This document shows, one piece after another, positions 59,901 to 62,900 of a DNA stretch of 64,000 bases (the first letter of the stretch is position 1; every line of letters starts with the position of its first letter). The DNA is from Escherichia coli. Its GTDB lineage: Bacteria; Pseudomonadota; Gammaproteobacteria; Enterobacterales; Enterobacteriaceae. Location of the stretch: the NCBI RefSeq assembly GCF_017348835.2, contig NZ_CP071375.1; one strand, written 5' to 3'. The position numbers were made by a program.

Positions 59901-62900
59901 TAACTCAGGCATGAAAGAAGGAGATTGTGTACATACACTGCCACCAGTTACGTTATCAACCATTTTCTTTCTCCTCATTCATATGAAAGTTGTAGTAATA
60001 ATAAGGTTACTATTTAATTATCAACTATCAAATTTCGCTCATTTGTATATTCCTTTGTCTTTTTACGTCATTTCCCTATCAGGTCATCGACCTGGTAATG
60101 AGGTGAGTAAACCGCGACACGTCAACGTGGGAAACAGCTCCTTGTAATGGTATCCCTACAATCAATGTCATCACCTTCAAAAATAATGATAAAAATTAAA
60201 AAAATTATCCACCCACGGATTTTTGTTAATATTCTGAGTGTGCCAGCTTTCATAAACACAGCCAATAACTAATTGTGATTCGATTCACATTTAAACAATT
60301 TCAGAATAGACAAATTTCTTGAGTATTATACTGTAGCCTCGTGTCTTTCGAGGATAAGTGCATTATGAATATCTTACATATATGTGTGACCTCAAAATGG
60401 TTCAATATTGACAACAAGATTGTCGATCACCGCCCTTGATTTGCCCTTCTGTAGCCATCACCAGAGCCAAACCGATTAGATTCAATGTGATCTATTTGTT
60501 TGCTATATCTTAATTTTGCCTTTTGCAAAGGCCATCTCTCGTTTATTTACTTGTTTTAGTAAATGATGGTGCTTGCATATATACATGGCGAATTAATGGA
60601 TATTGCAGATGTAATATTCACAGGGATCACTGTAATTAAAATAAATGAAGGATTATGTAATGGAAAACTTTAAACATCTCCCTGAACCGTTCCGCATCCG
60701 TGTTATTGAGCCAGTAAAACGTACCACTCGCGCTTATCGTGAAGAAGCAATTATTAAATCCGGTATGAACCCGTTCCTGCTGGATAGCGAAGATGTGTTT
60801 ATCGATTTACTGACCGACAGCGGCACCGGGGCGGTGACGCAGAGTATGCAGGCCGCGATGATGCGCGGCGACGAAGCTTACAGCGGTAGCCGCAGCTACT
60901 ATGCGTTAGCCGAGTCAGTGAAAAATATCTTTGGTTATCAATACACCATTCCGACTCACCAGGGCCGTGGTGCAGAGCAAATCTATATTCCGGTATTGAT
61001 TAAAAAACGCGAGCAGGAAAAAGGTCTGGATCGCAGCAAAATGGTGGCGTTCTCTAACTATTTCTTTGATACCACGCAGGGCCATAGCCAGATTAACGGC
61101 TGTACCGTGCGTAACGTCTATATCAAAGAAGCCTTCGATACTGGCGTGCGTTACGACTTTAAAGGCAACTTTGACCTTGAGGGATTAGAACGCGGTATTG
61201 AAGAAGTTGGCCCGAATAACGTGCCATATATCGTTGCGACCATCACCAGTAACTCCGCAGGTGGTCAGCCGGTTTCACTGGCAAACTTAAAAGCGATGTA
61301 CAGCATCGCGAAGAAATACGATATTCCGGTGGTAATGGACTCCGCACGCTTTGCTGAAAACGCCTATTTCATCAAGCAGCGTGAAGCAGAATACAAGGAC
61401 TGGACCATCGAGCAGATCACCCGCGAAACCTACAAATATGCCGATATGCTGGCGATGTCCGCCAAGAAAGATGCAATGGTGCCGATGGGCGGCTTGCTGT
61501 GCATGAAAGACGACAGCTTCTTTGATGTGTACACCGAATGCAGAACCCTTTGCGTGGTGCAGGAAGGCTTCCCGACATATGGTGGTCTGGAAGGCGGCGC
61601 GATGGAGCGTCTGGCGGTAGGTCTGTATGACGGCATGAATCTGGACTGGCTGGCTTATCGTATTGCGCAGGTGCAGTATCTGGTCGATGGTCTGGAAGAG
61701 ATTGGCGTTGTCTGCCAGCAGGCGGGCGGTCACGCGGCATTCGTTGATGCAGGTAAACTGTTGCCGCATATCCCGGCAGATCAGTTCCCGGCACAGGCGC
61801 TGGCCTGCGAGTTGTATAAAGTCGCCGGTATCCGTGCGGTAGAAATTGGCTCTTTCCTGTTAGGCCGCGATCCGAAAACCGGTAAACAACTGCCATGCCC
61901 GGCTGAACTGCTGCGTTTAACCATTCCGCGCGCAACATATACTCAAACACATATGGACTTCATTATTGAAGCCTTTAAACATGTGAAAGAGAACGCGGCG
62001 AATATTAAAGGGTTAACCTTTACCTACGAACCGAAAGTATTGCGTCACTTCACCGCAAAACTGAAAGAAGTTTAATTAATACTACAGAGTGGCTATAAGG
62101 ATGTTAGCCACTCTCTTACCCTACATCCTCAATAACAAAAATAGCCTTCCTCTAAAGGTGGCATCATGACTGATCAAGCTGAAAAAAAACACTCTGCATT
62201 TTGGGGTGTTATGGTTATAGCAGGTACAGTAATTGGTGGAGGTATGTTTGCTTTACCTGTTGATCTTGCCGGTGCCTGGTTTTTCTGGGGTGCCTTTATC
62301 CTTATCATTGCCTGGTTTTCAATGCTTCATTCCGGGTTATTGTTATTAGAAGCAAATTTAAATTATCCCGTCGGCTCCAGTTTTAACACCATCACCAAAG
62401 ATTTAATCGGTAACACCTGGAACATTATCAGCGGTATTACCGTTGCCTTCGTTCTCTATATCCTCACTTATGCCTATATCTCTGCTAATGGTGCGATCAT
62501 TAGTGAAACGATATCAATGAATTTGGGTTATCATGCTAATCCACGTATTGTCGGGATCTGCACAGCCATTTTCGTTGCCAGCGTATTGTGGATAAGCTCG
62601 TTAGCCGCCAGTCGTATTACCTCATTGTTCCTCGGGCTGAAGATTATCTCCTTTGTGATTGTGTTTGGTTCTTTCTTCTTCCAGGTCGATTACTCCATTC
62701 TGCGCGATGCCACCAGCACCACGGCGGGAACGTCTTACTTCCCGTATATCTTTATGGCTTTGCCGGTGTGTCTGGCGTCATTTGGTTTCCACGGCAATAT
62801 TCCCAGCCTGATTATTTGCTATGGCAAACGCAAAGATAAGCTAATCAAAAGCGTTGTCTTCGGTTCGCTGCTGGCGCTGGTGATTTATCTCTTCTGGCTC

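Follow-up and report, generated by a model that had tools for sequence, protein, structure and literature searches.

The tryptophanase operon tnaCAB of Escherichia coli is governed by an attenuation scheme in which tryptophan, the leader peptide TnaC and the factor Rho take part (PMC8429421, PMC12360218, PMC3299997). The tnaC promoter has been described as a Class I CRP promoter (PMC5957442), and changing any one of four TnaC residues, Trp12, Asp16, Ile19 or Pro24, abolishes stalling (PMC8429421). Rho entry and the pause and termination sites have been assigned to the spacer that separates tnaC from tnaA (PMC8429421, PMC12360218, PMC7186457, PMC5748587), which ribosomal protein L4 and the sRNA Spot42 have also been reported to target (PMC7186457, PMC5748587). 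TorR, RpoS and MarA have been reported as further inputs to tna (PMC5720752). The tna leader is among the best-studied attenuators, and another copy of it has little discovery value.

We analyzed this region in a 64-kb stretch of E. coli DNA (the window, to which all positions refer), in which the operon lies next to an effector-like gene that K-12 lacks at this site. A sequence-only reading had taken the tna leader to be intact beside that gene, and the present analysis bears this out: CRP core, promoter, tnaC and spacer occupy positions 60274-60659 in K-12 order and spacing, followed by tnaA from 60660 and by tnaB. The region had been drawn to end at 60660; it stands as a region, but its end does not, 60660 being the first base of the tnaA ATG. 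Ungapped alignment of 60272-60663 with K-12 gave 16 substitutions and no indels over 392 nt (95.9% nucleotide identity), eight of them clustered at 60315-60331 between the -35 and -10 positions, one each at 60348 and 60418 and six in the distal spacer, with none in the CRP core, and it revealed no loss of a known promoter element. Judged from its sequence, the leader is very probably a normal allele of the textbook region that controls the tryptophanase (indole) operon in E. coli. Both the leader and its arrangement with mnmE are already known and common in E. coli.

Elements of the tna control region

The CRP site AATTGTGATTCGATTCACATTT (60271-60292, plus strand) contains the core TGTGATTCGATTCACA at 60274-60289, the sole TGTGA-N6-TCACA in all 64 kb of the window (chance expectation 0.05), so that the consensus half-sites of a Class I CRP-dependent promoter are present at this position. 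The core is identical in all nine E. coli loci aligned, and its spacing to tnaC equals that of K-12 in the alignment. Of the 22 bases of the site, 60271 comes from the variable segment described below and the other 21 are common to K-12. It had been called a perfect palindrome, which is true of the two 5-bp arms TGTGA and TCACA but not of the 6-bp spacer TTCGAT or the flanks AAT and TTT, which are asymmetric. O157 differs in carrying AAATGTGA, with A at 60273, which extends the inverted repeat to fully symmetric 8-bp arms.

Consensus scans and the ungapped K-12 alignment place the core tna promoter at 60300-60341 on the plus strand. Its -35-like element is TTCAGA (60300-60305), and two overlapping -10 candidates follow, TATTAT at 60324-60329 and TATACT at 60327-60332, the latter being the positional equivalent of AATAAT in K-12; TATACT/TATTAT still reads as a good -10 element. 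Taking the K-12 leader to be 319 nt long, as we assume, we infer that transcription starts near 60341; like the -10 element, this start is placed solely from homology and consensus. Measured from this estimated start, the CRP centre lies at about -59.5, against the ~61.5 bp upstream (or one more helical turn) expected of a Class I promoter. The substitution at 60348 falls in the loop of a small 5' hairpin (CCTCG...CGAGG). An Rfam scan of 57600-60800 returned no RNA family for the leader and only two sub-threshold snoRNA matches attributable to chance.

The core promoter exists in more than one version in the species. That of the window occurs, at 95% identity or more, in about 3,801 of 5,400 genomes (the majority, ~70%) and that of K-12 in 1,599; the K-12 core tna promoter is therefore a minority, atypical E. 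coli version, which matters when K-12 promoter data are applied to other strains. The K-12 patch itself, eight substitutions within 17 bp (window 60315-60331; K-12 locus 1886-1902), looks like a small recombination patch. We considered whether these eight substitutions had arrived together with the variable segment and rejected the idea: the same majority version is found in BL21-AI, O103:H2 12009 and SK1144, which lack the segment, as well as in ~70% of genomes.

The leader peptide gene tnaC (60365-60439, plus strand; 24 codons and a UGA stop) is identified by its translation, MNILHICVTSKWFNIDNKIVDHRP followed by TGA, and by a match to the NCBIfam equivalog TIGR02616 tnaC_leader (score 44.3 bits, cut-off 23.55; E = 1.1e-11). 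The protein is identical to that of K-12, the sole nucleotide difference being synonymous (60418, Lys18 AAG). Trp12, Asp16, Ile19 and Pro24 are all kept, with Pro24 the last codon ahead of the stop, in agreement with the earlier description of a tnaC with Trp12 and a terminal proline. The stop context, CACCGCCCTTGA, sets the UGA (RF2) codon directly before the rut/boxA region, and the 113 nt from 60419 to 60531, which span the tnaC stop and the rut region for Rho loading, are identical to K-12. The stop codon varies naturally: it is TGA in the window (60437-60439), K-12, O157 and SK1144, and TAA in BL21-AI and O103:H2 12009 (locus 866-868 in both), a polymorphism at the very codon where tryptophan inhibits RF2-dependent release.

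The tnaC-tnaA spacer (60440-60659, plus strand), previously put at roughly 220 bp, measures exactly 220 nt, as in K-12. It holds the rut/boxA region by the stop, sites of Rho-dependent pausing and termination, and AAGGA (60648-60652), the Shine-Dalgarno sequence of tnaA, 7 nt upstream of the tnaA ATG at 60660, and differs from K-12 at 60532, 60584, 60585, 60598, 60600 and 60604. Downstream, tnaA (tryptophanase, 471 aa; 60660-62075, plus strand; ORF and PGAP, with dN = 0 relative to K-12) and tnaB (low-affinity tryptophan permease, 415 aa; 62166-63413, plus strand; an ORF annotated in K-12 and PE164) are both intact. In SK1144 (locus 5396-7099), tnaB is split by an IS5-family element.

From the K-12 work, we infer the same attenuation mechanism for this copy. 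cAMP-CRP bound at 60274-60289 would activate the Class I sigma-70 promoter, the transcript would begin about 24 nt ahead of tnaC, and ribosomes would translate the 24 codons. Without free tryptophan, RF2 would free the peptide at the UGA, leaving rut exposed just past the stop, and Rho would load there and end transcription within the 220-nt spacer. With tryptophan present, the ribosome carrying TnaC-tRNAPro would stall at Pro24/UGA and block Rho, and tnaA and tnaB would be transcribed.

A variable segment between mnmE and the CRP site

The gene upstream of the operon is mnmE, encoding the tRNA modification GTPase (56298-57662, plus strand; ORF, PGAP and alignment), whose TAA stop (57660-57662) forms the left end of K-12 homology. 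Alignment with the K-12 MG1655 mnmE-tnaC region, proposed earlier as the way to define exact endpoints, gave 57662/57663 and 60271/60272: homology stops after the mnmE stop and restarts at 60272, two bases before TGTGA, which puts the right endpoint inside the 22-bp CRP footprint. Since homology resumes only at 60272, the junction just reaches the CRP site at its outer margin. Between the two breaks, the window carries 2,609 bp (57663-60271) and K-12 a 150-bp filler, which is common to K-12, BL21-AI, O103:H2 12009 and SK1144. The gene had been described as inserted upstream of the tna promoter; with 2,609 bp standing in place of 150 unrelated ones, the alignment shows instead a replacement of the whole interval from mnmE to the CRP site, not to a simple insertion. 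The filler was also considered as a remnant of the segment, an origin that we rejected, as the best local alignment between the two scored 18, lay inside the coding region and was reached by 5 of 300 shuffles. Searches for mobile-element ends detected neither terminal inverted repeats nor a flanking duplication in the segment, which also contains no transposase or integrase gene, its single ORF having an effector domain only.

This ORF (57801-59963, minus strand) is an intact ShET2/EspL2-family effector-like gene encoding 720 aa, identified through Pfam, PGAP, homologues and dN/dS. Residues 143-388 of the product match Pfam Toxin_15 (PF07906, ShET2 N-terminal region; E = 1.7e-49), PGAP labels the gene in PE164 as a predicted ShET2/EspL2 family type III effector, and E. 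coli homologues of about 720 aa share 81-90% identity with it. A PDB sequence search with the protein returned no match and thus no solved relative. Translation likely begins at 59963, the PGAP start, with AGGAG 7 nt upstream, while the longest ORF would start at 59978. The distance to the CRP core is accordingly 310 bp (295 bp from 59978), close to the 300 bp or so estimated earlier between the divergent gene start and the CRP site. At its other end, the gene converges on mnmE, and a GC-rich hairpin at 57685-57720, recognized from an inverted repeat and terminator-like sites with T-runs on both strands, is a probable bidirectional terminator for the two.

Within the 401-bp divergent intergenic region, the segment-specific part (59964-60271) is AT-rich and shows 88-90% identity between alleles, compared with 97-100% in the adjoining tna leader. 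It includes the palindrome CAGGTCATCGACCTG (6-3-6; 60080-60094), a possible regulator site that lies some 120 bp ahead of the effector start codon and is kept in every allele, its centre being G or A. The nearby sequence CACGTCAACGTG was observed in the window only.

Distribution and age of the two gap states

Gap states were counted among 5,426 complete E. coli genomes. The 2.6-kb effector segment is present in 765 (14%) and the K-12-type 150-bp filler in 4,616 (85%); the remaining ~45 have other states, including IS-mediated events such as the IS1-associated loss of tnaC and tnaA in SW07163, where IS1 sits directly after the CRP-proximal promoter and part of tnaB is missing as well (locus 3544-4881). 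The mnmE-tna gap is a clean two-state polymorphism of E. coli whose right boundary is the CRP site. The junctions are the same in all segment loci aligned (O157:H7 F1273, PapM-32-1, THO-008, a Danish isolate and two metagenome contigs). The allele of the window is rare: 57500-60800 is 100% identical to PE164, a pig isolate, and just two of the 5,426 genomes reach 99% identity across this interval, other segment carriers being ~91% identical.

Identity between segment alleles shifts sharply at the CRP site, from ~90% in the effector CDS and 88-90% on the segment side of the intergenic region to 97-99% between the CRP site and tnaC, 97-100% in tnaC and 97-99% in the spacer. Effector alleles have dS values of 0.15-0.25 and dN/dS of 0.4-0.65; the corresponding values are 0.16-0.17 and ~0.01-0.02 for mnmE, and 0.10-0.12 and ~0.02 or less for tnaA. 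Silent divergence of the effector gene is as large as that of the flanking genes, and its dN/dS greatly exceeds theirs. We conclude that the segment did not arrive recently but has long resided in the species, and that the protein it encodes evolves fast. Its description as foreign holds for composition (GC ~31-43% against ~55%) but not for history, given an old resident class of alleles that 14% of complete genomes carry, whose dS resembles that of the flanks and which lacks mobile-element ends.

The effector gene is highly polymorphic, with protein identities of 76-93% between alleles, and its dN/dS of 0.4-0.65 contrasts with 0.006-0.02 for mnmE and tnaA at similar dS. These values suggest relaxed or diversifying selection on an old effector locus. 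In mnmE, positions 56370-57662 carry 2-11 mismatches per 100 bp relative to K-12 and O157, against 0-1 at the end of yidC upstream, and this raised, almost wholly synonymous diversity beside the variable gap suggests old recombination tracts. The two metagenome contigs, JAFACO010000474.1 and CAKVEW010000084.1 (~2.8-2.9 kb), were binned with a Bacillota MAG and with an uncultured Clostridium MAG. Both are E. coli fragments that carry the effector gene and tnaC in this same arrangement, so the bins are contaminated. Their ends lie close to the segment boundaries, which is the expected outcome when the strains in a metagenome differ.

An old segment raises the question of polarity. The effector segment could be the older state and the K-12-type filler the derived one, in which case nothing was inserted next to tna. 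We consider this a real possibility, though short of probable. The effector dS (0.15-0.25) is comparable to or above the values for mnmE (0.16-0.17) and tnaA (0.10-0.12), the junctions are identical across alleles and free of mobile-element ends, and the filler, unrelated to the segment, is not a simple deletion scar. On the other hand, the segment is the minority state (14% versus 85%) and atypical in GC, and a scan of contigs for outgroups gave only the two misbinned E. coli contigs.

Upstream exchange and comparison with known systems

The claim that tryptophan-dependent antitermination is undisturbed needs to be divided. All known cis elements lie to the right of the junction with K-12 spacing kept, and to that extent antitermination appears unaffected; the 150 bp upstream, however, have been exchanged. 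It is conceivable, if unlikely, that this exchange changes the level of tna expression around an intact leader, through loss of an activator site or UP-like DNA or through spreading of H-NS-type silencing. K-12 homology does end 2 bp before TGTGA, with unrelated sequences beyond, and the segment, at ~31-43% GC, has a composition that is often silenced by H-NS; yet the K-12 filler is AT-rich too, so local composition by the CRP site is little changed, and a Class I CRP promoter requires no more than its CRP site and core promoter, both of which are kept. TorR is reported to be able to bind the tna promoter (PMC5720752), and the TorR, RpoS and MarA inputs might act through the sequence preceding the CRP site, which is different here, so that such a site may have been lost. 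A convincing tor box was nevertheless found in neither version: searching for CTGTTCATAT gave 60 matches in the window against 52.6 expected, and in both promoter versions every site had at least 2-3 mismatches, which left the search uninformative. Moreover, carriers of the segment such as O157:H7 are classically indole-positive. We also weighed whether the CRP site is shared, controlling the divergent effector-like gene as well and coupling the two promoters, which we hold to be very unlikely. In all alleles, the segment ends exactly at the CRP site, and one candidate on the minus strand, TTGGCT-17-CACACT preceded by TG, would place a start ~51.5 bp from the CRP centre. This higher-scoring candidate beside the site has a poor -10 hexamer, however, and lies at neither a class I nor a class II activation distance, while the candidates closest to the effector start codon, itself 310 bp off, begin ~285-290 bp from the CRP centre. 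Between the gene and the CRP site, the consensus scan gave no minus-strand site matching at 9 or more of 12 positions, and the intergenic scan offered no support for an interaction of the divergent promoters beyond weak consensus candidates. Highly improbable, finally, is the notion that the segment always ends at the CRP edge since the site serves both directions, wiring cAMP-CRP and, via tna, the indole level to the fast-evolving effector-like gene; were it true, the gap between mnmE and tna would act as a small regulatory module tying tryptophan catabolism to a host-interaction gene.

On the reading we favor, that of a normal tna leader abutting an old, variable segment, strains with the mnmE/effector/tna arrangement should stay indole-positive and tryptophan-inducible. 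The closest arrangement is that of O157:H7 and other strains, where mnmE, the ShET2/EspL2-family gene and tnaC are found with the same gene orientation, junctions, 401-bp divergent intergenic region and core-promoter version. The O157 allele is ~90% identical to that of the window in DNA, and the effector gene is frameshifted in O157:H7 F1273 and intact in the window; the intact PapM32 and THO008 alleles share 81-82% protein identity with it.

A likeness in mechanism exists with speFL-speF, an attenuator that is Rho-dependent and controlled by a uORF, in which a ribosome stalled on a short leader ORF masks the Rho entry site (PMC12360218). It is an analogue only; the window carries the tna system itself, and the comparison brings nothing new. 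Relative to the K-12 tnaCAB leader (b3707 region), the window differs in its likely -10 element (TATACT in place of TG-n-AATAAT, among the eight substitutions clustered at 60315-60331), in the hairpin loop base at 60348, in one synonymous tnaC codon, in the six spacer positions and, wholly, in the sequence upstream of the CRP site. It shares with K-12 an identical TnaC protein and, at equal spacing, the full succession of CRP core, promoter, 24-codon tnaC, UGA, 220-nt spacer, tnaA and tnaB.
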